From contig JANJVS010000172.1 of NCBI GenBank assembly GCA_024709955.1, positions 33,314 through 97,313 of the forward strand: 64,000 nt of DNA, given 5' to 3'. This DNA is from Rhodocyclaceae bacterium (GTDB taxonomy: Bacteria; Pseudomonadota; Gammaproteobacteria; Burkholderiales; Rhodocyclaceae). Positions 36,756-49,116 of the stretch are shown here, piece by piece (the stretch's first letter is position 1; every line of letters begins with the position of its first letter). A program made the position numbers and the translations under genes. Under the pieces are notes generated by a model that saw nothing but the letters and a program-made list of their open reading frames with translations, was not told the DNA's origin and ran no database searches.

Positions 36756-39572
36756 ATGGAACTCGCCAAAAGCTTCGAGCCCGCCGAAATCGAGCGGCGC
36801 TGGTATCCGCTCTGGGAATCGCGCGGCTATTTCGCCGCCGGTCTCGATACCCATAAGAGCGACAACTTCTGCATCCTGCTGCCGCCACCGAACGTCACCG
36901 GCACCCTGCACATGGGCCATGGCTTCAACCAGGCCATCATGGACGCGCTGACACGCTACCACCGCATGCGCGGCGCCAACACGCTCTGGCAGCCGGGCAC
37001 CGACCACGCCGGCATCGCCACGCAGATCGTCGTCGAACGCCAGCTCGATGCGCAGGGCGTGTCGCGCCACAACCTCGGCCGCGAGAAGTTCCTGGAAAAG
37101 GTCTGGGAGTGGAAGGAATACTCCGGTGGCACCATCACCAGGCAGATGCGCCGCCTCGGCACCTCGCCCGACTGGACGCGCGAACGCTTCACCATGGACG
37201 CCGGCCTGTCGAAGATCGTCACCGAGACCTTCGTGCGCCTCTACAAGGAAGGCCTGATCTACCGCGGCAAGCGCCTGGTCAACTGGGACCCGAAGCTGCT
37301 CACCGCCGTCTCCGACCTCGAAGTCGTCAGCGAGGAGGAAGATGGCTTCATGTGGGAGATCCGCTATCCCTTCGTCGGCTGCGAGGGCGCGCTGACCGTC
37401 GCCACCACCCGCCCGGAAACCCTGCTCGGCGACGTCGCCGTCGCCGTCAATCCCGAGGACGAGCGCTATACCCACTTGATCGGCAAGCACGTGCATCTGC
37501 CGCTGACCGGCCGCAGCATCCCGATCATCGCCGACGCCTACGTGGACAAGGAATTCGGCACCGGCTGCGTCAAGATCACGCCGGCCCACGACTTCAACGA
37601 CTGGCAGGTCGGCCACCGCCACGGCCTGGCGCCGATCTCGATCCTCACCCTCGACGCGCGCATCAACGAGCACGGCCCGGAGCAATACCGCGGCATGGAC
37701 CGCTACGAGGCCCGCAAGCGCATCGTCGCCGACCTCGAGGCCCTGGGCCTGCTGGTCGCCACCAAACCGCACAAGCTGATGGTGCCGCGCGGCGACCGCA
37801 CCGGCGTGGTCATCGAACCGATGCTCACCGACCAGTGGTTCGTCGCCATGAGCAAGCCCGGCGCCGACGGCAAGAGCATCGCCGCCAAGGCGCTCGAATG
37901 CGTCGCCTCGGGCGAGATCAAGTTCGTGCCCGAGAACTGGGTGAACACCTACAACCAGTGGCTCAACAACATCCAGGACTGGTGCATTTCGCGCCAGCTG
38001 TGGTGGGGCCACCAGATTCCCGCCTGGTACAGCGACGACGGCCGCGTCTATGTCGCCCACGACGAGGCCGATGCCTATGCGCAGGCCAGAAACGACGGCT
38101 ACACCGGCGGCCTGGAACGCGACCCGGACGTGCTCGACACCTGGTACTCGTCGGCGCTCTGGCCGTTCTCGACGCTCGACTGGACACCCGAATGGCCGGC
38201 CAAGTCGAACCCGGCGCTCGACCTCTACCTGCCCTCGACGGTGCTCGTCACGGGTTTCGACATCATCTTCTTCTGGGTGGCGCGCATGGTGATGATGACC
38301 AAGCACATCACCGGCAGGATTCCCTTCCAGCACGTCTATGTGCATGGCCTGATCCGCGACGCGGAAGGCCAGAAGATGAGCAAGTCCAAGGGCAATGTGC
38401 TCGACCCGATCGACCTGATCGACGGCATCGGCATCGACGACCTGGTCGCCAAGCGCACCACCGGGCTGATGAACCCGAAACAGGCCGAGCAGATCGAGAA
38501 GCGCACGCGCAAGGAGTTCCCCGACGGCATCGCCGGCTTCGGCACCGACGCGTTGCGCTTCACCTTCCTCTCGCTCGCTTCGCCCGGCCGCGACATCAAG
38601 TTCGACATGCAGCGTTGCGAGGGCTACCGCAACTTCTGCAACAAGCTGTGGAACGCCACGCGCTTCGTATTGATGAACTGCGAAGGCAAGGACTGCGGCC
38701 TCGACGTCCAGGCCGCGTGCGATGCCGCCCACCTGGACTTCTCGCCGGCCGACCGCTGGATCGTCAGCCTGTTGCAACGGGTCGAGGCCGAAGTCGCCAA
38801 GCACTTCGCCGACTACCGCTTCGACCTGCTGGCGAAGACCATTTACGAATTCGTCTGGGACGAATACTGCGACTGGTATGTCGAACTGGCCAAGGTGCAG
38901 ATCCAGAACGGCGGCGAGGCGCAGCAGCGCGCCACGCGCCGCACACTGGTGCGCGTGCTGGAAACCGTGCTGCGCCTGGCCCACCCGCTGATCCCCTTCA
39001 TCACCGAGGAGCTCTGGCAGCAGGTCGCGCCGGTGGCCGGCAAGGCAAATGTCGGCGCTGGCGACACGGTGATGCTGCAGTCCTATCCGGTCGCGGACTT
39101 GTCGCGCTGCGACGCGGCTGCCGAAGGCTGGGTGGCCACGCTCAAGTCCCTCGTCACCGCCTGCCGCAGCCTGCGCGGCGAAATGAACCTGTCGCCTGCC
39201 CAGCGTGTGCCGCTGATCGGCACGGGCGACCTCGCGGCACTGCGGCAGTTCGCCCCGTATTTGTCGGCGCTGGCCAAGCTCTCCGAGGTGACTGCCCAGG
39301 AAAGGCTGCCGGACAGCGACGCCCCGGTTCAGATCGTTGGCGACTTCCGCCTGATGCTCAAGATCGAGATCGATGTCGCGGCGGAAAAGGAGCGGCTCGG
39401 CAAGGAACTGGCCCGCGTCGAGGGCGAGATCGCCAAGGCGGAAAAGAAACTCTCCACCGAGAGCTTCGTCGCCCGCGCCCCGGCCAACGTCGTTGCCCAG
39501 GAGCGCGAGCGGCTGGCGAGCTTCAACGCGCTGCGCGAAAAGCTCACCGCCCAACTGGCCAAGTACGCTTAA
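36756..39572 (+). CDS. valS: Valine--tRNA ligase
   Basis: [30 protein letters not shown]-terminal coiled coil. Confidence 0.99.
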
Positions 39573-40453
39573 TTGCCGCTGGCCTGATAGGCACCGCCAG
39601 CCACCTTGGCCATCATCGCGGCCGTGCTGTCCGGGTGGCTGGCGATGCCCATGAACTGGAACATGCCCAGCTCGGGCCAGGCCAGCGCCGTGCGATAGCG
39701 GGCGAACAGGGCATGGGCCTTGTTGTCCACCACGAAGATTTCCCATGGCAGCGCGGCCACATGGTCCGCGCCGATCTTCTTCGCCCACCAGCCCTCGCCG
39801 TCCTCCGGATCGTTGGTGGCGACGCCGAACACGGCTAGCTTCTTCTCCGGCATCACCACTTCGTAGACCTTCGCGGTCTTGGCGACACCCTTGGCCAGAT
39901 TGTCGCGAATCGTCTTCACCGCCTCGTCGAAGCTGGCGTGCGCCTTCAATTCGCTCTTGTCGCCGAAGCGCTCCATGCCGGCCATGTAGCGATAGCCCGG
40001 CAAATCCTCCGGCTTGACCTCGCCGCCGAAGGGCTTGCCGGCACCGAGGACCTGCTGCAGCCTGGCGGTGGCGGACTTGACCGCCGCCTCGGCCTTGGCG
40101 TAATCCTGCCGCAGGTAAGCGCGCTGCCAGTATTCGAGGTTCTGATAGGAAATGGAACCGTCGGCCTTGACGCCGACGCGGATCGGCAAGCCGACCACAG
40201 CCGAGCCGCCAATCTGGGTCAGGGCGGCGGCAAGTCCCGGCTCGGTCACGATGATCGCGCCATGCTGGGGCAGGCCGGCGGGCTGATGGCGTCCGATCAC
40301 GGCAAAACCCGCCGCCGCCAGCTTTTGCTCGACGGTTGCCATCGTTGCCTTCAGATCGCCGCCCGGCTGCTTGTCGCCGCCGACATAGGGTTGCAGCGCG
40401 TGCGCCAGCATCGAAAATGCCACGAGCGCGCAGCCAGTGATGATTTTTTTCAT
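39569..40453 (-). CDS. Exported hypothetical protein with two DUF302-like halves
   Basis: Sec signal [19 protein letters not shown]; halves [21 protein letters not shown] and [20 protein letters not shown] resemble DUF302. Confidence 0.7.
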
Positions 40454-40500: not shown

Positions 40501-40533
40501 AACAAAAAGGCCGGCTAAGCCGGCCTTTTTGTT
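40501..40533. terminator. Perfect hairpin terminator between the FadL-like gene and the exported protein gene
   Basis: AACAAAAAGGCCGGC-TAA-GCCGGCCTTTTTGTT, a 15-bp perfect inverted repeat. Confidence 0.85.
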
Positions 40534-40546
40534 CATGGCTACCCGA

Positions 40547-41986
40547 TCAGAAGCGGTGGCTGTACATCAACTGCCAGTTGTGGGTTTGCTCGTGAGTGGT
40601 TTTCATCAAAGTGGAGAGCGAGTTCGTCGTGGATACTTCGGGAGCGTAGGAGTAGGAAAAATCGATGCTGGATGCGGCGCTGAAGGCATAGCCGAAGCCC
40701 AACGTGTAGTGGTTCTTTATCGTTGCCGGGAACAGATAATTGACATACTTGTTAGGCACCGGGTTGTCGGCGATATTCACACCGGCACGCAGCGTGAGCG
40801 CGTCGGTGTATTTGTAGGAGCCACCGATCATGACCACGTTCTGGTCATCCCACTCCTGCGGCATCGTGATACCCATGGTCTGCCCCGCCATGCCCATCGC
40901 GGTATTCACCGCGCCGGAGTCGGCGACAAAGCTCATCTTCATGCTCTTCATGGTGTCGGCCCAGCCAATACGCTTGTAGTCGGCAGCCAGCATCAAGCGA
41001 TCATTGACCTGATAGGCGAGGCCGATGCCAAAGGTTTCCGGCCATTGGAAATCGACCACCTTCAACTTGCCGGTAATGGACATGACACCGCTACCATCGG
41101 GGGTCATGGCGGCAGGCACGCCCATCTTCATGGCGCCGTTACCCGACATGTCCTTCAAACTGGTTTTGGCATGATAGACGGCACCGATCGACAGCTGAGG
41201 GGTGGCCTGCCACTGGAAGCCGATATTCCCCGCCCAACCATCCGTCTTCAGGCGCTGCTTCATCTTGTTGGCGCCCTCGGAAAAATCGAACTGCGCCCAG
41301 GTCACATCGAAACCGGGCATCGCCATGAAGGAACCCATGGCGAGCGGCAGGGTGCTCGTGGGCGACATCGCGGCCATGCTGGATGTGCCGCCCAAAATCT
41401 GCGCGAATTGCGAACCGGTCATACTCATCTGAAGGTCGAGTCCCCCCCAGAGATAGTCGATGGAGCCGCCGACCTTGAACTTGTCGGTCACATCGTAGGC
41501 GAGCGGCAACATCAGACGACCGAGACCGAGTTCGGAACGATTCTCCTGCCCGGATGCGCCCATCGCCCCGCCCATCATCGATTGGGATGCGCTGAGGAAG
41601 GAATTCCTCCCGTATTCGGTGCCCATGCCGCCCTGGGCCATCATGCCCAGGCCGAAGGTAAACCGTTCCATCTTGCGCACATAGCCGACGGCGGGCATGT
41701 AGTAGGCATCACCGTCGGAACCGGCCTTCATGCCCATCATCGAGGAGTTGACGTTCGGGTGCAGGCCGCCGATCGCGACATCGAGGCGGCTGGAGCCGCT
41801 CTTCATCATGCCCAGCGTGGCCGGGTTGTTGATCATGCCGGCGGTGCCGTTGTCGTATGCGTAGGATGCGCCACCCATGCCGGTCGCGACTGGGCCGTAG
41901 CCCTCCATGTTCATGCCGTTGGTGGCAAAGGCCGGAGCGGCGAGGCCGGAAACGGCAATCAGCGCAGCGATTTTTTTGAGCTTCAT
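40547..41986 (-). CDS. OmpP1/FadL/TodX family outer membrane channel, methionine-rich
   Basis: Signal peptide then TNGMNMEGYG..GMGGAS..NNPA hatch motif of the FadL family; terminal YSHRF. Confidence 0.88.
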   Translation of the reverse strand: MKLKKIAALIAVSGLAAPAFATNGMNMEGYGPVATGMGGASYAYDNGTAGMINNPATLGMMKSGSSRLDVAIGGLHPNVNSSMMGMKAGSDGDAYYMPAVGYVRKMERFTFGLGMMAQGGMGTEYGRNSFLSASQSMMGGAMGASGQENRSELGLGRLMLPLAYDVTDKFKVGGSIDYLWGGLDLQMSMTGSQFAQILGGTSSMAAMSPTSTLPLAMGSFMAMPGFDVTWAQFDFSEGANKMKQRLKTDGWAGNIGFQWQATPQLSIGAVYHAKTSLKDMSGNGAMKMGVPAAMTPDGSGVMSITGKLKVVDFQWPETFGIGLAYQVNDRLMLAADYKRIGWADTMKSMKMSFVADSGAVNTAMGMAGQTMGITMPQEWDDQNVVMIGGSYKYTDALTLRAGVNIADNPVPNKYVNYLFPATIKNHYTLGFGYAFSAASSIDFSYSYAPEVSTTNSLSTLMKTTHEQTHNWQLMYSHRF

Positions 41987-42145
41987 GGTCCCCCCTGATG
42001 GGTTTTTATTCAAGCTGTTGGAGAAATACGCCGACCGAGGCCGGCACGTGGGTCCGACTCTAGGATGTCAAACAACGGATGCCAACCGCTTCCCTCATCT
42101 CCGTCGTTCGGCAACCCGTCATCGTTGTAATGGTGCGACAAAGGC

Positions 42146-42751
42146 TCAAATGAACAAGGTGACGTCCGCCTTCTGGGCGACGGGCAGGAACGAGGCCGCG
42201 CCGACGTAGTCCATGCCTTCGACGAAGTCGTCATGGCTGAAGCCGAACAGCTCCACGGTCATCTGGCAGACGACGAACTTGACGCCGGCCTCCTGGGACA
42301 GTTCGCGCAACTCGGCGATGCCGGCCACGCCGTTGTTCTTGATCGTCTGCTGCATCAGGCTGGTGGCCACGCTTTCGAAGCCCGGAATACCGGCCTGGAC
42401 GATATTTGGGATGTTCCAGTTGATGCTCTTGAACCAGTCGGGACCGAACGGCATTTTCATCGGCATGCCCGGGTTGCCCAGCGGGCTCACCTTCAGGTCG
42501 GAAACATCCTTCTTGACCAACTGAAGGCCGTAGAAGGTGAAGAACACCGTGACATCCCAGCCCAGCGCGGCGGCAGTGGAAGCAAGGATGAAGGGCGGAT
42601 AGGCCCAGTCCAAGGTTCCCTTGGTGGCGATGATCGCCATCGAGGGGGTCTTCGATTCCTCGCGCTCCTGCAGCAGGGCATCGAGTTTTTGCGGCAGGAG
42701 CTCGTCCAGCCGCTTGTTGATCAATTCTTCGATTTCGGGGTTGGTGCTCAT
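42146..42751 (-). CDS. dsrE2: DsrE2-like (DsrE/F/DrsH family) sulfur carrier
   Basis: AIIATKGTLDWAYPPFILASTAAALG..FFTFYGL, FVVCQMT; adjacent to tusA. Confidence 0.85.
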   Translation of the reverse strand: MSTNPEIEELINKRLDELLPQKLDALLQEREESKTPSMAIIATKGTLDWAYPPFILASTAAALGWDVTVFFTFYGLQLVKKDVSDLKVSPLGNPGMPMKMPFGPDWFKSINWNIPNIVQAGIPGFESVATSLMQQTIKNNGVAGIAELRELSQEAGVKFVVCQMTVELFGFSHDDFVEGMDYVGAASFLPVAQKADVTLFI

Positions 42752-42858: not shown

Positions 42859-42878
42859 TTATGCGGACATTTGCATAA
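42859..42878. promoter_or_regulatory. Palindromic operator candidate upstream of dsrE2
   Basis: TTATGCG-N6-TGCATAA; a similar site lies upstream of tusA. Confidence 0.5.
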
Positions 42879-42958: not shown

Positions 42959-43186
42959 TTACTTGCGCTTGATGTAGAACTCGAATTCCTTATTGTTCTC
43001 GGCGCTGGACAGCAGCTCGTTGCCGGTCTGCTTGGCGAAGGCGGCGAAGTCCTTCACGGAACCCGGATCGGTGGCGATGATGCGCAGCGTCTGACCGCTG
43101 GTCATCTCGCCCAGCGCCTTCTTGGCGCGCAGAATCGGCAGAGGGCAGTTGAGGCCACGGGCATCCAGTTCGCGATCGAAATTCAT
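42959..43186 (-). CDS. tusA: Sulfur carrier TusA
   Basis: LDARGLNCPLPIL..ATDPGSVKDF; RBS GGAGG. Confidence 0.96.
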   Translation of the reverse strand: MNFDRELDARGLNCPLPILRAKKALGEMTSGQTLRIIATDPGSVKDFAAFAKQTGNELLSSAENNKEFEFYIKRK

Positions 43187-43273
43187 TGTGTATCCTCCGG
43201 TGTTGAATGAGTGGGTTAAAAAGCTTAATGGTGCATCATAAGCCGCATTCAAAGAGGCGGCAATTCGAGAAAC

Positions 43274-43293
43274 TTATGCGCTCTTCCGCATTC
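43274..43293. promoter_or_regulatory. Palindromic operator candidate upstream of tusA
   Basis: TTATGCG-N6-CGCATTC; same left half and spacing as 42859-42878. Confidence 0.45.
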
Positions 43294-43316: not shown

Positions 43317-44294
43317 TCAGGCGACCGATTGATAGTAAAGGTTCTGCGGGTGATTGGCCTGGGCGAAGAAGAACCAGCGCTCCGCGAGCAATCCGAGATA
43401 CTGCACGACGAAGGCGAATGCGAGGACGTCGCCCGCCATCGAGACGAGCCCCAGACCAAGCAGCACCGACGGCACCGCAAAGGCGCCGAGCAGGAAAATC
43501 CACTTGACCGCGCGCAGCACCGAGCCGGGCCGACCGTGGAAGAACTCGCGGGTATTGAAGGCGCCACCCATCATGCCCTGGGCCTTCTGGGCAATCTTCG
43601 GGTGCTTGATGCCAATCGCCGTCTGGAGCGAGGACTTCGGCTTCAGGCGGGCATTGCGGATCAGCGCGGCGACCCGTCCGATCAGGCCGAGCGCCGTGAT
43701 GATCAGCGCCCAGCCCGCCAGCACCGGCATCACATCCGGCGCGACGTCAGCGGCCAGGGCGGCCGCCAACGTAAAACCGGAGGCGCCTCCCAGCAGGATG
43801 TAGTTGATGACGGTCAGCGGCGTATGCCATTCGCGCAGGAAGCGCAGGCAGGCGTAGATCATGCCGGTGCAGACGTAGAGCGCAAACGCGAGCACGGTGC
43901 CGACGACACCGAGTACCGCGGTGACATTCACCGGCGCACCGCTCGGCAGCTGCGCCAGCACCGGATTAATGCCTAGCCAATGCGCCATGCCGTAAAGAAA
44001 GACGGTGCCCATGAAGGCCGGCAACACGATCACCTCGCGCGACAGCCACGAGGTACGCCACTGCGTCGCCGCGCGCCAGGCGCGCTCGGGGTGGCCGAGA
44101 TGGAAGAAAGACGCGATCAGTCCCAACACGAGCAGGACCATGGCGATGGCGCTGCCCACGGCATATAAGCCGTTCGTCTGCGCGGGCAGCAGGCCGAATG
44201 CCGCATAGGACTCGACCGTAAACAGGGCGAGGAACAGGCCCTGCCCGGCACCGATCAGCGTGGTGAGGAATACGACGGAAAAAGCGGGATGCAT
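43317..44294 (-). CDS. soeC: Sulfite dehydrogenase membrane anchor (DmsC/NrfD family)
   Basis: MHPAFSVVFLTT, SFFHLGHPERAWRA..SWLSRE, ERWFFFA. Confidence 0.92.
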   Translation of the reverse strand: MHPAFSVVFLTTLIGAGQGLFLALFTVESYAAFGLLPAQTNGLYAVGSAIAMVLLVLGLIASFFHLGHPERAWRAATQWRTSWLSREVIVLPAFMGTVFLYGMAHWLGINPVLAQLPSGAPVNVTAVLGVVGTVLAFALYVCTGMIYACLRFLREWHTPLTVINYILLGGASGFTLAAALAADVAPDVMPVLAGWALIITALGLIGRVAALIRNARLKPKSSLQTAIGIKHPKIAQKAQGMMGGAFNTREFFHGRPGSVLRAVKWIFLLGAFAVPSVLLGLGLVSMAGDVLAFAFVVQYLGLLAERWFFFAQANHPQNLYYQSVA

Positions 44295-44305
44295 TTATTA
44301 CTCCT

Positions 44306-44389
44306 ATGCCGCTGCAGGGCCGCCCCAAAGCGGCATGCGCCTCCCCGTGGGGGGCAGCGAGATGAATTTGCGGGCGTGGGTGGCCATAT
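44306..44389 (-). repeat. Intergenic palindromic repeat, copy 2
   Basis: Minus strand CCACCCACGC..TCGCTGCCCCCCACGGGGAGGCGC-ATGCCGCT-TTGGGGCGGCCCTGC-AGCGGCAT; aligns with 48523-48603. Confidence 0.8.
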
Positions 44390-45121
44390 TTACCAGCTGG
44401 TGACGTCGTCGAGCGAAGGCTCGGCCTTGCCGGGCTTCGGCAACTGCTGGTCGATCTTGAGCGGGTTGTCGGCGCGCTCCAGTTCGTCCTCCCGGATCCT
44501 GAGCTTCGTCTTGCGTCGCGGCAGGTAGTGGTTCGCCGGATTGGTGCCCCACTCCGGCATGAGCTGATAGCCGCCCGCCTCGCGGATCGCCTTCGAGACT
44601 TCCGATTCGGGATCGTGGATGTCGCCGAACAGGCGCGCGCTGGTCGGACAGGCGCGCACGCAGGCGGGGCGCCGCTCCTCGGCCGTCATCGTCGTGTCGT
44701 AGATGCGATCGACGCAGAGCGTGCACTTCTTCATCACCTTCTGGTGCTCGTCGATCTCGCGCGCGCCGTAAGGGCAGGCCCACGAGCAGTACTTGCAGCC
44801 GATGCACTTGTCGTAGTCGACGAGGACGATGCCGTCCTCCTTGCGCTTGTACGACGCGCCTGTCGGGCACACCGGCACGCAGGGCGGCTCCTCGCAGTGC
44901 AGGCAGGACTTCGGGAAATGCACTGTCTCCGTGTTCGGGAATTCGCCGACCTCGAAGGTCTGCACGCGGTTGAAGAAGGTGCCGGTCGGGTCCTTGCCAT
45001 AGGGGTTCTGGTCCACCAGCGGGCCGGCCTCGCCGGAGGTGTTCCATTCCTTGCAGTTGGTCACGCAGGCGTGGCAGCCGACGCAGACGTTGAGGTCGAT
45101 AACGAGAGCGAGCTGGGTCAT
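44390..45121 (-). CDS. soeB: Sulfite dehydrogenase Fe-S subunit
   Basis: CVGCHACVTNC, CLHCEEPPCVPVC, CIGCKYCSWACPY, KCTLC..C..AC; four clusters. Confidence 0.93.
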   Translation of the reverse strand: MTQLALVIDLNVCVGCHACVTNCKEWNTSGEAGPLVDQNPYGKDPTGTFFNRVQTFEVGEFPNTETVHFPKSCLHCEEPPCVPVCPTGASYKRKEDGIVLVDYDKCIGCKYCSWACPYGAREIDEHQKVMKKCTLCVDRIYDTTMTAEERRPACVRACPTSARLFGDIHDPESEVSKAIREAGGYQLMPEWGTNPANHYLPRRKTKLRIREDELERADNPLKIDQQLPKPGKAEPSLDDVTSW

Positions 45122-47988
45122 TTCTTCGCTCCCGCGAAATAATTCCAGATCGACTTGCGTTCGGTCTGGCCTGGATAGGGCTTGAGGGGCGCAAATTGCG
45201 GTTCCGTCACCGTCTCGCCAGCGCCGACTTCTGCCTTGTAGATGCGCACGCGCACGTCGTACCACGCGGCCTGGCCGGTGATCGGGTCGGAGTTCGACAC
45301 GCGCCTATCGACGCCGCGCTCGCAGGCGGGCAGCTCCTCTGAAATCAGATGATTGAGCAGGAAGCCCTGCTGCGACTCGTTGGCATCCGGCGTCAGGCCC
45401 CAGGCACCGGCAGCCTTGCCAATGGCATTCCAGGTCCACACCGTCCCCGGCTCGACCGCCTCGGAATGCTTCGCCATGCACTTGACCTTGCCCCACTGCG
45501 ACTCCACCCAGATCCAGTCGCCGTCCTCGATGCCATTCACGCGCGCCGTATGCGCATTCACGTAAAGCAGGTTATGGGCATGGATCTGCCGCAGCCAGGC
45601 GTTCTGTGAATCCCAGGAGTGGTACATCGCCATCGGCCGCTGCGTGATCGCCGCGAGCGGATACTTGTGCTTGTCGCTGACCTGCGCTTCCAGAGTGTCG
45701 TAATAGAACGGCAGCGGATCGAAGAAGGTCTCGACGCGCTTGGCCAGATGGGCCGGCGGCTTGCGCGAGAAGCCCTTGCCCTGCGCCGCCTGGCGAAAAC
45801 GCATCAGCACTTCCGAGTAGATATTGATGAGGATCGGTTCCGCGTAGCGCGTGATGCGGTTGCGCTGGCTCCATTCGAGATAGCCCTGGTTCCAGTTGCG
45901 CATGTACTGGTAGCTCTTCGGCAGCTCGTAGTGGAAGACGCAGTTGTTCTTCGCGTACATCTCCCACTGGTTCGGGTTCGGCTCGCCGCGCAGCGACTTC
46001 TCGCCGCCTTTGCCGCGCCAGCCGGCGAGGAAGCCGATGCCGGACCCCGGTTCGGTCTCGTAGTTGACGATGAAGTCGGGATAGTCGCGGTACTTGCGCT
46101 GGCCGTCCTTGGTGGTGAAAGCCGGCAGCTTGAGGCGCGAGCCGAGCTCGATGAGCACCTCCTGGAACGGCTTGCACTCGCCGGTCGGCGGCACGACGGG
46201 AATGCGCACCGAATCCACTGGGCCGTCGAACTCGGAGATCGGCCGGTCGAGGATCGACATCACGTCGTGGCGCTCGAGGTAGGTCGTGTCCGGCAGAATC
46301 AGGTCGGCGAAGGCCGTCATCTCGGACTGGAAGGCGTCGGCCACAACGATGAACGGAATCTTGTACTCGCCGTTCTCGTCCTTGTCGTTGAGCATTTTCC
46401 GCACCTCGACGGCGTTCATCGTCGAGTTCCAGGCCATGTTGGCCATGAAGATCAACAGCGTGTCGATCTTGTAGGGATCGCCACGCCAGGCGTTGGTGAT
46501 GGCGTTGTGCATCAGGCCATGCACCGACAGCGGATACTCCCAGGAGAAGCCCTTGTCGAGGCGCACCGGCCCGCCGTTTTCATCGACGAACAGGTCGTCG
46601 GGATCGGCCGGCCAACCAAGCGCCATGCCGTCGAGCGGTTTGTTCGGCTGCACGGCGTTCGGATGGTTCGGCGTGCGCGCGCAAGGCGGAATCGGCCGCG
46701 GGAACGGCACCTTGTGACGGAAGCCGCCGGGACGGTCGATGGTGCCGAGCAGAGACATCAGGATGGCGAGCGCACGGATGGTCTGGAAACCGTTCGAGTG
46801 CGCCGCGAGACCACGCATGGCGTGGAAGGCAACCGGATTGCCGGTGACGGTATCGTGCTCCTTGCCCCAGCTGTCGGTCCAGGCGATCGGCAATTCGATG
46901 CGCTGGTCGCGCGCGGTGACGCCCATCTCGTAAGCGAGGCGTCGGATGGTATCGGCGGGAATGCCGGTGACGCCTTCGGCCCATTCGGGCGTGTAGTCCT
47001 TGACACGCTCATAGAGCAACTGGAACGAGGGCTTGACCGGCGTGCCGTTGAGCTTGAACTCGCCGAGCAGGCAGGGATCGACGCCCTCGGCGTGCGTCAC
47101 CACCGGCTTGTTGGTCTTGCGGTCCCACCACAACTTGTCCTGCGGGTCGTAGCAGGCCTCTTCCTCCGGCACCTCGGTGCGCAGGAACATGCCGAACTCG
47201 TCGCTGGCCTCGTCGCAGTTCACCAGCTCGCCGGCGTTCGAATACTGGACGAGGAAATCGCGGTCGTAGAGGCCCTTCTGGATGATCTCGTGGATCACCG
47301 CCAGCAGGAAGGCGCCGTCGGTACCCGGGCGGATCGGCACCCATTCGTCGGCGATCGCCGAGTAGCCGGTGCGCACCGGATTGATCGAGACGAAGCGGCC
47401 GCCGTCGCGCTTGAACTTGGACAGCGCGATCTTCAACGGGTTGGAGTGATGGTCCTCGGCCGTGCCGATCATCACGAACAGCTTGGCGCGATCGAGGTCG
47501 GGGCCGCCGAACTCCCAGAACGAGCCACCGATCGTGTAGATCATGCCGGCCGCCATGTTCACCGAGCAAAAGCCGCCATGCGCCGCGTAGTTGGGCGTGC
47601 CGAACTGACGCGCGAACATGCCGGTGAGCGCTTGCATCTGGTCGCGGCCAGTGAATAGCGCGAACTTCTTCGGATCGGTCGCGCGAATCTTGCCGAGCCG
47701 TTCGGCCAGCGTGGAGAAGGCCTCTTCCCAGGAGATCGGCTCGAACTCGCCGGCGCCGCGCTCAGCGCCCGCCTTGCGCTTGAGCGGTCGCGTCAGGCGT
47801 GCCGGCGAATACTGCTTCATGATGCCGGACGAGCCCTTGGCGCAGATCACGCCCTTGTTGAGCGGATGATCCGGGTTGCCGTCGATGTAGCGCACCTCGC
47901 CGTCACGCAGGTGCACACGAATGCCGCAACGACAGGCGCACATGTAGCAGGTCGTGTTTTTGACTTCCTGCACGGATTGTTGTGTCAT
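45118..47988 (-). CDS. soeA: Quinone-dependent sulfite dehydrogenase molybdopterin subunit
   Basis: TTCYMCACRCG N-terminal Fe-S motif, no Tat signal, YAAHGGFCSVNMAAG, MYHSWDSQNAWLRQI; ABC layout next to tusA/dsrE2. Confidence 0.92.
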   Translation of the reverse strand: MTQQSVQEVKNTTCYMCACRCGIRVHLRDGEVRYIDGNPDHPLNKGVICAKGSSGIMKQYSPARLTRPLKRKAGAERGAGEFEPISWEEAFSTLAERLGKIRATDPKKFALFTGRDQMQALTGMFARQFGTPNYAAHGGFCSVNMAAGMIYTIGGSFWEFGGPDLDRAKLFVMIGTAEDHHSNPLKIALSKFKRDGGRFVSINPVRTGYSAIADEWVPIRPGTDGAFLLAVIHEIIQKGLYDRDFLVQYSNAGELVNCDEASDEFGMFLRTEVPEEEACYDPQDKLWWDRKTNKPVVTHAEGVDPCLLGEFKLNGTPVKPSFQLLYERVKDYTPEWAEGVTGIPADTIRRLAYEMGVTARDQRIELPIAWTDSWGKEHDTVTGNPVAFHAMRGLAAHSNGFQTIRALAILMSLLGTIDRPGGFRHKVPFPRPIPPCARTPNHPNAVQPNKPLDGMALGWPADPDDLFVDENGGPVRLDKGFSWEYPLSVHGLMHNAITNAWRGDPYKIDTLLIFMANMAWNSTMNAVEVRKMLNDKDENGEYKIPFIVVADAFQSEMTAFADLILPDTTYLERHDVMSILDRPISEFDGPVDSVRIPVVPPTGECKPFQEVLIELGSRLKLPAFTTKDGQRKYRDYPDFIVNYETEPGSGIGFLAGWRGKGGEKSLRGEPNPNQWEMYAKNNCVFHYELPKSYQYMRNWNQGYLEWSQRNRITRYAEPILINIYSEVLMRFRQAAQGKGFSRKPPAHLAKRVETFFDPLPFYYDTLEAQVSDKHKYPLAAITQRPMAMYHSWDSQNAWLRQIHAHNLLYVNAHTARVNGIEDGDWIWVESQWGKVKCMAKHSEAVEPGTVWTWNAIGKAAGAWGLTPDANESQQGFLLNHLISEELPACERGVDRRVSNSDPITGQAAWYDVRVRIYKAEVGAGETVTEPQFAPLKPYPGQTERKSIWNYFAGAKK

Positions 47989-48105
47989 TCTCTGCGGGTC
48001 CCTCAGTTGGTTTATTAGAGTTTTGTTATATTCTTGCAGTCTCACTTCCTTGTCACAAGGGAGTAATTTTTATTTACCGATAAACAGTTACCGACAGGAG
48101 CAGCC

Positions 48106-48522
48106 ATGGCGCGCCCCATTCCAAAATTCAGCGAACGAGAACGCAACCTCGTCAGCCAAACCCTCGTCGAACGCTTCGGCAAGGCAATTCCCCTCCAGGC
48201 CATCGAAGCGGAAATCCAGCTCGACCTGCTGAAGGAAGAGCTCACGCCATGTCCCGCACTCACATGGCAGGAAGGCGTCTGCAGCTTTGTCATTTTCAAG
48301 ACCGGCGACAGCCGTTTCCGCTGCCAGTTTTACTACACCGATGCGGAACAGTTCGGCACCGGCCAGTTGGAATATGACAATCTGGGCGACTGTGCGGTCG
48401 AGCTGCTGCAAATCCAGGCCAATCACGAAGCCGAACGGATTAAGATACTCCGGGGGATCAACGCGGTCGACTTCTCCAAGGCCAACGATGGCGAGGACTA
48501 CCACGCCCCCCTCATCATATAA
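48106..48522 (+). CDS. Hypothetical protein divergent from soeA
   Basis: AGGAG RBS; protein-like ORF with CPALTW, FVIFKTG, FRCQFYY, QFGTG..YDNLGDC. Confidence 0.8.
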   Translation: MARPIPKFSERERNLVSQTLVERFGKAIPLQAIEAEIQLDLLKEELTPCPALTWQEGVCSFVIFKTGDSRFRCQFYYTDAEQFGTGQLEYDNLGDCAVELLQIQANHEAERIKILRGINAVDFSKANDGEDYHAPLII

Positions 48523-48603
48523 ATGCCCCACCCACGCTAACTTTCGTTCGCTGCCCCCCCACGGGGGGCGCATATTTTCTTGGGACGGCCCTGCAAAAAT
48601 ATG
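48523..48603 (+). repeat. Intergenic palindromic repeat, copy 3
   Basis: CCACCCACGC..TCGCTGCCCCCCCACGGGGGGCG-CATATTTT-C-TTGGGACGGCCCTGC-A-AAAATATG. Confidence 0.8.
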
Positions 48604-49116
48604 AAAATCTGCATCGTTTCCGACAGCCACGACCGCGGTCCGCTGCTGGCCACCGCCATCGAGATCGCCAAGGCGGAAGGCGCCGAGGCAGTCATCCATT
48701 GTGGCGACCTGATCGGCACCAATACGCTAAAGGCCTCGCTCAAGCTCGGATTGCCTATCCATGCCGTGCATGGCAACAATCTCGGCGATCCCGTCGCCAT
48801 CGCCCGGCTCGCCTGCCACTCGGAAGGTCTGCTGCACTACCACGGCAACGATGCCGGCATCGAGTTGGGGGAGCGGCGGATTTTCATCACCCACTATCCG
48901 CACATCGGCAGGGCCTTCGCCTGCACGGGCGACTTCGATCTGGTCTGTTGCGGACACAGCCATGTGCCGAAAATACAGCAGGAACCCAACGTCAGAGGCG
49001 GAACGACCTGGCTGGTCAATCCGGGGACAGTTGCCGGACTGGGCGCCCCGGAGGCCACCTGGATCATGGCCAACCTGGCGGAACTGGATTTCGACATTCG
49101 CGTCCTGCCGCGATAG
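48601..49116 (+). CDS. Metallophosphoesterase (YfcE/MJ0936-like)
   Basis: VSDSHD, HCGD, VHGNN, THYP, CCGHSH, NPGT. Confidence 0.92.
   Translation: MKICIVSDSHDRGPLLATAIEIAKAEGAEAVIHCGDLIGTNTLKASLKLGLPIHAVHGNNLGDPVAIARLACHSEGLLHYHGNDAGIELGERRIFITHYPHIGRAFACTGDFDLVCCGHSHVPKIQQEPNVRGGTTWLVNPGTVAGLGAPEATWIMANLAELDFDIRVLPR

Follow-up and report, generated by a model that had tools for sequence, protein, structure and literature searches.

A 64,000-nucleotide stretch of the genome of a Rhodocyclaceae bacterium (contig JANJVS010000172.1, the whole stretch being called the window here) carries at 40547-41986, on the minus strand, the gene for a methionine-rich outer-membrane channel of the FadL/TodX type, which we call FadLM. 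We tentatively favor a reading of FadLM as a passive FadL-type channel for small, uncharged, very hydrophobic sulfur, that is, cyclo-S8 or related zero-valent sulfur, and regard this as quite possible rather than probable. The substrate and the direction of transport we infer from the fold, the family, the conservation of the methionines, the pattern of their substitution, the taxonomic restriction of the protein and its synteny.

In the proposed mechanism, S8 would pass the lipopolysaccharide barrier by the lateral-diffusion route of the FadL family: entering between the extracellular loops of the channel, it would bind beneath the N-terminus, in a pocket lined by Met, and escape laterally to the outer membrane, and transport could run in either direction. 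The Met thioethers would provide a soft, flexible lining at the plug, the pocket and the gate. The candidate periplasmic acceptor would be the exported, tandem-DUF302-like product of the adjacent gene, orf294, and cytoplasmic processing would proceed through TusA/DsrE2, then rDsr and then SoeABC. Cyclo-S8 is of similar size to the monoaromatic compounds that the nearest relatives of the channel carry.

How does water-insoluble elemental sulfur cross the outer membrane of Gram-negative oxidizers, inward for oxidation and outward for globule deposition? This is an old open question, for which current models invoke thiol-bearing outer-membrane proteins, with no transporter identified. The locus offers a concrete and testable candidate made of two genes, one for a FadL channel and one for an exported DUF302-like protein; in many lineages the pair is genetically linked to the sulfur relay of the cytoplasm. 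It is tempting to go further and propose that FadL channels, here Met-lined, and exported DUF302-fold proteins would together form a Cys-free, non-covalent route for cyclo-S8 across the outer membrane and periplasm, feeding TusA/DsrE2, although we hold this wider proposal to be somewhat unlikely. If true, the route would be the missing first step of elemental-sulfur use or excretion, DUF302 would gain its first function, and a hydrocarbon-channel scaffold would have been retuned by wholesale exchange of Leu/Ile for Met.

The FadL family is already known; the Met-rich clade, its restriction and the tusA-dsrE2-FadL-DUF302 arrangement appear to be new. No description of the clade, of its restriction to sulfur oxidizers or of the recurrent arrangement was found in the searchable literature, and a search for Met-rich FadL proteins, a FadL-TusA link or FadL in elemental-sulfur (S0) transcriptomes returned only the proposal for CT2230 of Chlorobaculum.

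Family, methionine content and methionine placement

Membership of FadLM in the FadL family is secure. Residues 16-450 match the Pfam family Toluene_X (OMPP1/FadL/TodX, PF03349) with a score of 122.7 bits (cut-off 29.7; E = 1.7e-35), and the score with the NCBIfam FadL equivalog is 25 bits for a cut-off of 585. An AlphaFold2 model built with 57 homologs (predicted local distance difference test, pLDDT, 87.6) has an N-terminal segment, residues 22-65, followed by 14 strands, and a Foldseek search with it returned TodX first (E = 1e-39, target-normalized template modeling, TM, score 0.87-0.90). By sequence, the closest solved structures are TbuX (E = 9e-57), TodX (E = 5e-54) and CymD (E = 2e-49), with Escherichia coli FadL marginal at E ~3e-3. 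Among the 57 homologs, N54 and P55 of the hatch NPA motif are invariant and A56 is present in at least 90%; the S3-kink glycine G120, equivalent to G104 of TodX, and the S2-bulge proline P98 are also invariant. The NPA motif, the kink glycine and the bulge proline define the lateral opening in the FadL family (PMC7728783). FadLM would best be explained as a passive, facilitated-diffusion barrel in which a hydrophobic substrate passes through a lateral opening formed at the bulge of S2 and the kink of S3.

The start codon of the gene is the ATG at 41986, as all homologs open with MKLKK and a G-rich ribosome-binding site, GGGGGGA, lies 5′ of this ATG; on the same grounds a TTG upstream, at 42013, was rejected. 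Residue T22, the first of the mature protein, aligns with residue 1 of mature TodX. The mature N-terminus TNGMNMEGYG is invariant in our alignment A1, for which the loci were retrieved in part by the pattern NGMNMEGY, a circumstance that bears on this invariance; the same N-terminus is found in independently retrieved representatives.

The translation contains 43 Met in 479 residues (8.98%), along with 61 Gly, 6 His and 0 Cys. An earlier note, made from the sequence, had described a FadL-like channel with about 43 Met, several times the usual content, and both the family and the count stand. As a baseline, 2308 genes of at least 150 amino acids were called with a filter on third-position GC content (GC3) in the whole assembly (3.5 Mb, 237 contigs); their mean Met content is 2.36% and the 99th percentile is 6.0%. 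FadLM, at about four times the mean, ranks second overall and first among genes for more than 200 amino acids, and the binomial probability of at least 43 Met in 479 residues at a frequency of 2.5% is 1e-12. The stretches MMGM (83-86), MAMP (221-224), MKSMKM (346-351) and MGMAGQTMGITM (364-375), to which the note drew attention, are all present in the translation.

Conservation of the methionines was assessed in the alignment of 57 homologs, which are 45-85% identical to FadLM. Eight positions, M25, M27, M37, M97, M121, M187, M346 and M351, are Met in at least 93% of the sequences, and about ten to a dozen more, among them M51, M61, M86, M115, M116, M189, M280, M288, M386 and M474, are Met in 60-85%. 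The residues that replace Met at the conserved positions are mostly L, F, I or V. In composition, Met is up by 4.1 points in the clade and L is down by 2.9, I by 1.5, V by 0.7 and F by 0.6, with no rise in His or Cys. Because of this alternation with L/I/V/F and this balance, we conclude that Met has been swapped in for aliphatic residues at hydrophobic positions, and not added in the form of metal-type Met/Gly/His-rich loops.

Where do these residues lie? An HMMER alignment relates FadLM to the residues that Somboon et al. 2020 (PMC7728783) described for TodX. In the principal binding pocket, L166, V313 and L326 of TodX correspond to M187 (Met in 93% of the clade), M351 (98%) and M375 (16%), and the five pocket residues L132, L162, L164, V272 and F275 remain unchanged, as L153, L183, L185, V310 and F313, none of them Met. 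Beside the S3 kink, where the N-terminus docks once rearranged, L105 of TodX is replaced by an invariant Met, M121, next to G120. In the plug N-terminus, F4 and L6 become M25, which is invariant, and M27 (98%). Finally, M97 (96%) lies in the S2 bulge, the lateral gate, two residues past the equivalent of Tyr79. The earlier note had warned that its reading would suffer if the methionines were scattered and unconserved; the best-conserved ones include several that fall on pocket, plug and gate residues of TodX.

The 42 Met of the mature protein divide into 6 in the hatch, 13 in the extracellular loops L1-L5 and 20 in strands S2-S5 and S7-S10, the other three being M83 at the top of S1, M461 in L7 and M474 in S14. 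The six periplasmic turns hold 0 Met, and residues 387-460, comprising S11-S13 and L6, form a Met-free run of 74 (shuffle p = 0.017). As judged from the alignment with TodX, this placement agrees with a path lined by Met that starts at the loops, runs through the pocket and ends at the lateral gate.

An alternative is that the Met clusters bind the soft metals Cu(I), Ag(I) or Hg, either for import of copper where it is scarce, in sulfidic habitats, or for buffering of toxic metals at the surface. Spacings of the MxM type occur 7 times in the channel, but this number is not significantly above that in shuffles (p = 0.067). Also in line with a metal role, a metal-resistance island with DUF302 genes next to it has been described (PMC7760498), and at two Azohydromonas loci the channel gene precedes a gene for an HlyD/CusB-like membrane-fusion protein and a long (~990-1100 amino acids) unannotated open reading frame (ORF). 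On the other hand, His amounts to 1.25% and Cys to zero, with neither enriched in the clade; Met replaces buried Leu/Ile/Val/Phe, unlike the methionines of a Met-rich secreted protein encoded elsewhere in the genome, on contig C92; and none of the cop, cus, pco and mer families was found among 96 neighbor genes at the related loci. We know of no FadL barrel with a continuous polar pore for ions. Metal binding appears to us very improbable.

More improbable still is that the methionines serve as a sacrificial oxidant sink at the cell surface, repaired by a periplasmic methionine sulfoxide reductase. The number of Met in loops L1-L5 (13 of 42) is the sole point in its favor. The best-conserved methionines are in the hatch and barrel interior, those of the exposed loops are less than 60% conserved except for M137, no msr genes are adjacent, and position-specific conservation at the pocket and gate would be unexpected for a bulk scavenger. 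The metal or oxidant-handling role that the earlier note had offered beside the sulfur path is poorly supported, given the lack of a gain in His or Cys, the absence of cop/cus/mer neighbors and the replacement of buried aliphatic residues by Met.

The genome does encode, outside the window, secreted low-complexity Met/Gly-rich proteins, at C92:6516-7028 (-) and C73:14650-15180 (-). The C92 protein, with sequence MGMMGGQGGMGMMGEGM..., is 20% Met. Proteins of this kind would be expected to serve in metal or stress binding in the periplasm, and they contrast with the Met pattern of the channel.

Distribution, gene neighborhood and the weighing of alternatives

High Met content is a property of the relatives of FadLM as well. 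The nearest 120 database homologs, at least 57% identical, have 5.8-8.6% Met, and the channel homologs at 80 loci from named genomes have 3.6-8.8%. Representatives of 50%-identity clusters that are at least 39% identical to FadLM range from 2.5 to 8.6% (all but one at least 3.2%), and nearly all have a mature N-terminus close to TNGMN(M/L)EGYG. FadLM, at 9.0%, is the extreme of this subfamily. TodX-like representatives, with the N-terminal pattern T-N/D-V-F-x-L-E-G-Y-G, have 1.1-2.5% Met; in a maximum-likelihood tree from a quick search, these low-Met proteins form one clade with support of 100 that is nested among Met-rich lineages and excludes FadLM. A more distant group with the N-terminus NGMNMIGYG is moderately Met-rich, at 3.8-6.1%.

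Outside genomes with sulfur-oxidation genes, the Met-rich clade is almost absent. In a sample of 401 genomes evenly drawn from the same order, with the clade called at E ≤ 1e-100, it occurs in 27 genomes from 11 families. DsrE2 is present in 25 of these 27 genomes versus 79 of the 374 others (Fisher p = 5e-14). Among 20 carriers reached through the loci, which include Nitrospirota, Thiomicrospiraceae and Thiohalobacter, 17 have a DsrE2-like match, above the family cut-off in 13, and two more have SoxB. The genome of the window itself encodes SoxB and DsrA, the latter with an adjacent, weaker DsrB-like match. The DsrE2-negative genomes of the sample yielded just two TodX-like homologs, with 2.0 and 2.4% Met, so that the equally Met-rich homologs in non-sulfur organisms against which the earlier note had cautioned were not found. 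The note's idea of a thioether-lined path for S8 or polysulfide survives because the methionines proved to be conserved and the TodX-like relatives poor in Met, and the gene neighborhood adds support.

In the window, the genes for a SoeABC-like molybdoenzyme, TusA, DsrE2, FadLM and orf294 all lie on the minus strand; ValS is also among the neighbors. The 80 related loci span the Rhodocyclaceae, Sulfuricellaceae, Thiobacillaceae, Gallionellaceae, Acidiferrobacteraceae and Thiohalomonadaceae. On the same strand, dsrE2 immediately precedes the channel gene at 39 of these 80 loci, tusA lies upstream at 41, and an orf294 homolog directly follows the channel gene at 43. The 25 families listed for the 96 neighbor genes in other loci include none of aromatic catabolism.

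What is the product of orf294? It gives no Pfam match even at E = 10, DUF302 (PF03625) included, and no sequence match in the PDB. Its AlphaFold2 model (pLDDT 90.5) finds as top Foldseek matches the DUF302 structures 1q9u, 1j3m and 7tj1 (E = 3e-4 to 3e-3, TM 0.60-0.65), each covering about half of the protein. Because the model matches DUF302 structures over each half, orf294 is predicted to have a tandem DUF302-like fold. Its family is present in 59 of the 401 genomes, of which 57 are DsrE2-positive. A Pfam-positive DUF302 lipoprotein of 189-194 amino acids with 7.4-8.2% Met is encoded immediately upstream of the Met-rich channel in Thiomicrorhabdus and Thiosulfatimonas, which is an independent case of a channel paired with a DUF302-type protein.

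These lipoproteins (L055:6957-7523, L072:6978-7544 and L071:6939-7520) have an LSGC lipobox and two further conserved Cys. A gene for a protein of about 300 amino acids downstream of the Thiomicrorhabdus channel was considered as an orf294 homolog and turned out to encode an NAD-dependent epimerase-family protein. At four loci, two Met-rich channel copies flank the orf294 homolog (G081:C52:16821-20973, G211:C4:129441-133596, G253:C1:215515-219324 and G329:C32:21758-25712), an arrangement that is a tandem duplication around the partner gene.

The pairing extends beyond the Met-rich clade. In a genome of the same genus (G174, L101:1612-2877), the slot between dsrE2 and orf294 holds a FadL with the N-terminus ATNGDNLIGLG and 4.5% Met, which keeps almost the same signal peptide as FadLM; this likeness suggests that the barrel was replaced by recombination. 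In three other genomes (G297, L103:1534-2790; G108, L102:1244-2485; and G050), the slot is filled by a FadL of the ATNGYF(S/A)HG type, with 2.2-3.7% Met. In 20 further genomes that bear orf294 and lack the Met-rich clade, orf294 adjoins an ATNGYF(S/A)HG-type FadL in 10 and a FadL of the G174 type in one (G153). The pairing of a FadL with a tandem-DUF302-like protein, often beside tusA-dsrE2, is robust in that it survives replacement of the channel subfamily, and this strengthens the link to sulfur.

The same restriction to sulfur organisms and the same synteny would be expected if the channel passed, instead of S8, another small sulfur compound, volatile or hydrophobic; organic polysulfanes, dimethyl (di)sulfide, methanethiol, CS2 and COS are examples. 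Molecules of such size are what the nearest structural relatives transport, and one carrier, Thiohalobacter, is a thiocyanate oxidizer. However, no organosulfur-catabolism genes were seen beside the channel gene, and small volatile sulfur compounds cross membranes unaided, so that a dedicated channel would be less needed for them than for insoluble S8. We consider such a substrate improbable.

Several observations weigh against a channel for elemental sulfur. At the level of the protein, the lumen-facing orientation of the Met side chains would follow from the sequence alignment to TodX and from strand parity, and the parity signal (8 of 11 Met in pocket-anchored strands share the parity of the anchor) is not significant alone. 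At the level of the clade, the nesting of low-Met TodX proteins among Met-rich lineages, together with the moderately Met-rich NGMNMIGYG group, makes Met-richness a widespread feature of the larger subfamily, one that may be ancestral and need not be an adaptation to sulfur, and carriers G198 and G412 have neither DsrE2 nor SoxB. At the level of the locus, about 40% of the clade loci have housekeeping neighbors only, for example YebC, NUDIX, AspRS and RuvC. The channel gene, bracketed by a putative promoter and a terminator-like hairpin, probably forms its own transcription unit, and any co-regulation with genes of the sulfur carriers would be hypothetical. Exactly two copies of the palindrome TTATGCG-N6-YGCAT are present in the window, one ahead of dsrE2 (42859-42876) and one ahead of tusA (43274-43291); a shared operator for tusA, dsrE2 and the channel was rejected, as neither the channel gene nor orf294 has the palindrome upstream. 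Finally, high Met content is not required in the dsrE2-FadL-orf294 slot, and Met cannot be essential for the function of the module, because the same slot holds FadLs with only 2.2-4.5% Met. For the thioether-lined path proposed in the earlier note, the conserved Met positions and the sulfur context hold up, with the limit that a high Met content is not obligatory.

Much of this would agree with FadLM being a general FadL channel whose hydrophobic substrate is not a sulfur compound but, for example, a fatty acid, a hydrocarbon or a lipid-like signal, with Met as a flexible lining and a link to sulfur that is phylogenetic or ecological only. Flexible hydrophobic linings of this sort are known as the 'methionine bristles' of SRP54 and calmodulin. 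Such a channel would be at home among housekeeping genes and under its own promoter and terminator, Met-richness does extend across a large and diverse subfamily, low-Met FadLs can fill the same slot, and the genome lacks a canonical high-scoring FadL, so that FadLM may be its default FadL. Yet the association of the clade with DsrE2/SoxB genomes is strong, whereas generic Pfam FadL proteins occur in 298 of the 401 genomes, and channel genes of different FadL subfamilies, in lineages far apart, repeatedly lie next to tusA-dsrE2 and to genes for DUF302-type proteins. Moreover, many of the named carriers, in Thiomicrorhabdus, Gallionella, Sulfuricella and the Thiobacillaceae, belong to lineages that we take to be chemolithoautotrophs, which would have little use for hydrophobic carbon sources. 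We regard the general channel as unlikely and retain the elemental-sulfur channel as our preferred reading.

Features of the locus and further observations

The features of the locus are collected in Table 1. The label 'Soe' rests on the set of subunits, the missing twin-arginine (Tat) signal of the catalytic subunit and the context; the subunits give family-level matches only, below equivalog cut-offs. For TusA, the true start is likely the internal MNFDRELD at ~43186, as relatives have 75-residue forms.

Table 1. Position and character of the genes and signals at the FadLM locus (window coordinates)
Feature	Position	Strand	Remarks
FadLM, Met-rich FadL/TodX-type outer-membrane channel	40547..41986	-	479 amino acids, 43 Met; residues 22-65 hatch, then 14 β-strands
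Signal peptide of FadLM, MKLKKIAALIAVSGLAAPAFA	41924..41986	-	Read from the sequence; ends AFA|T22, mature N-terminus TNGMNMEGYG from T22
orf294, exported partner	39569..40453	-	Signal peptide; mature part without Cys; predicted tandem DUF302-like fold
DsrE2 sulfur carrier	42146..42751	-	NCBIfam SulfCarrDsrE2, 225 bits (cut-off 210)
TusA sulfurtransferase	42959..43252	-	Pfam TusA, E = 7.5e-25
SoeABC-like molybdoenzyme	43317..48045	-	Molybdenum bis-pyranopterin guanine dinucleotide (Mo-bisPGD) subunit 45118-48045; 4Fe-4S subunit 44390-45265; DmsC/NrfD-type anchor 43317-44294
Putative sigma-70 promoter of the channel gene	42057..42085	-	TTGGCA-17-TAGAGT; consensus scan; both hexamers conserved upstream in related loci
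Intrinsic-terminator-like hairpin, AAAAAGGCCGGC-TTA-GCCGGCCTTTTT with T-run	40504..40530	-	17 nucleotides past the stop; read from the sequence, not listed by a simple scanner

A further conserved element, TGTnGnAT(n3-4)TGCAACG, lies at 42120-42140 on the minus strand, just past the dsrE2 stop and about 35 nucleotides upstream of the -35 box of the channel gene. Several of its bases are invariant in 13 aligned loci, and it lacks the GG at -24 and so misfits a sigma-54 promoter; it is a possible candidate for a regulator site. Upstream of the SoeA-like gene, two ORFs overlap on opposite strands, 48088-48699 (-) and 48106-48522 (+). The conservation seen by tblastn fits either strand, and GC3 favors the plus-strand ORF of 138 amino acids.

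The genome contains other FadL-type proteins. A paralog of FadLM on contig C7 is 44% identical, has 4.6% Met and lies among unrelated neighbors, DUF808-like and ABC-F-like as judged by eye from the ORF sequences. A distant paralog at C141:15888-17678 (-), 22% identical and with 4.1% Met, has the N-terminus ATNGDHMIGLS; it is directly preceded by a gene for an exported protein of 197 amino acids with 8.6% Met that carries a CVACH haem-binding motif at its C-terminus. Another Met-rich product of the genome is encoded on the minus strand of contig C1 by an ORF of 495 amino acids starting ~6971 nucleotides from the 3′ end of the contig. It is repetitive and acidic, with 7.9% Met, and consists of GFD...MM repeat units with a Pro/Gly-rich PPDG tail at its end.

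Comparison with known systems

The proteins whose Met motifs bind Cu(I)/Ag(I), namely CusF, CopC/PcoC, the N-termini of CopB/PcoB, and Ctr1, give no profile match in FadLM, and the MxM count, the His and Cys content and the context all misfit such a role. A precedent for Met in a sulfur enzyme is the sulfur oxygenase reductase, in which a pair of conserved Met at the active-site pore is important for activity (PMC7398979). As for FadL proteins, CT2230 of Chlorobaculum tepidum belongs to the sulfide-repressed PSOS-2 regulon and has been proposed as a carrier of hydrophobic sulfur chains (bioRxiv 10.1101/172254). CT2230 comes from a different phylum, and no tusA-dsrE2 or DUF302 synteny has been reported for it.

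DUF302 genes sit inside the sox clusters of chemolithoautotrophs that lack SoxCD and of Sulfitobacter (PMC5037610, PMC11034169). The likeness between these clusters, in Acidithiobacillia, Thiohalorhabdus and Sulfitobacter, and the locus described here is a DUF302-fold periplasmic protein genetically tied to sulfur oxidation. The product of orf294 differs from its sox-cluster counterparts in having no Pfam DUF302 sequence match, in being apparently a two-domain fusion, and in being paired with a FadL channel instead of soxAB.

Escherichia coli FadL (PDB 1t16) shares the Pfam family and the architecture of FadLM, and its transport by lateral diffusion is presumed alike. It is 15-17% identical to FadLM, with TM ~0.65-0.72, and the match by sequence (E ~3e-3) covers the C-terminal strands only.

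The best matches are TodX of Pseudomonas putida, TbuX of Ralstonia pickettii and CymD (PDB 3brz/3bs0, 3bry and 6z34), at 24-29% identity and TM 0.85-0.90. They share with FadLM the 14-strand barrel, the hatch NPA motif, the S3-kink Gly, the S2-bulge Pro, five pocket residues and the register of the mature N-terminus. They differ from it in several respects: only 6 of 420 aligned residues in TodX and about 8 of 422 in TbuX are Met (about 1.4-1.9%), compared with 42 Met in mature FadLM; the plug N-terminus reads TQVFDLEG in TodX and TNGMNMEG in FadLM; and Leu/Val residues of the TodX pocket and gate are Met in FadLM. FadLM also falls outside the TodX-like clade, and its gene is found not in an aromatic-hydrocarbon operon (tod, tbu or cym) but beside tusA-dsrE2-soeABC.

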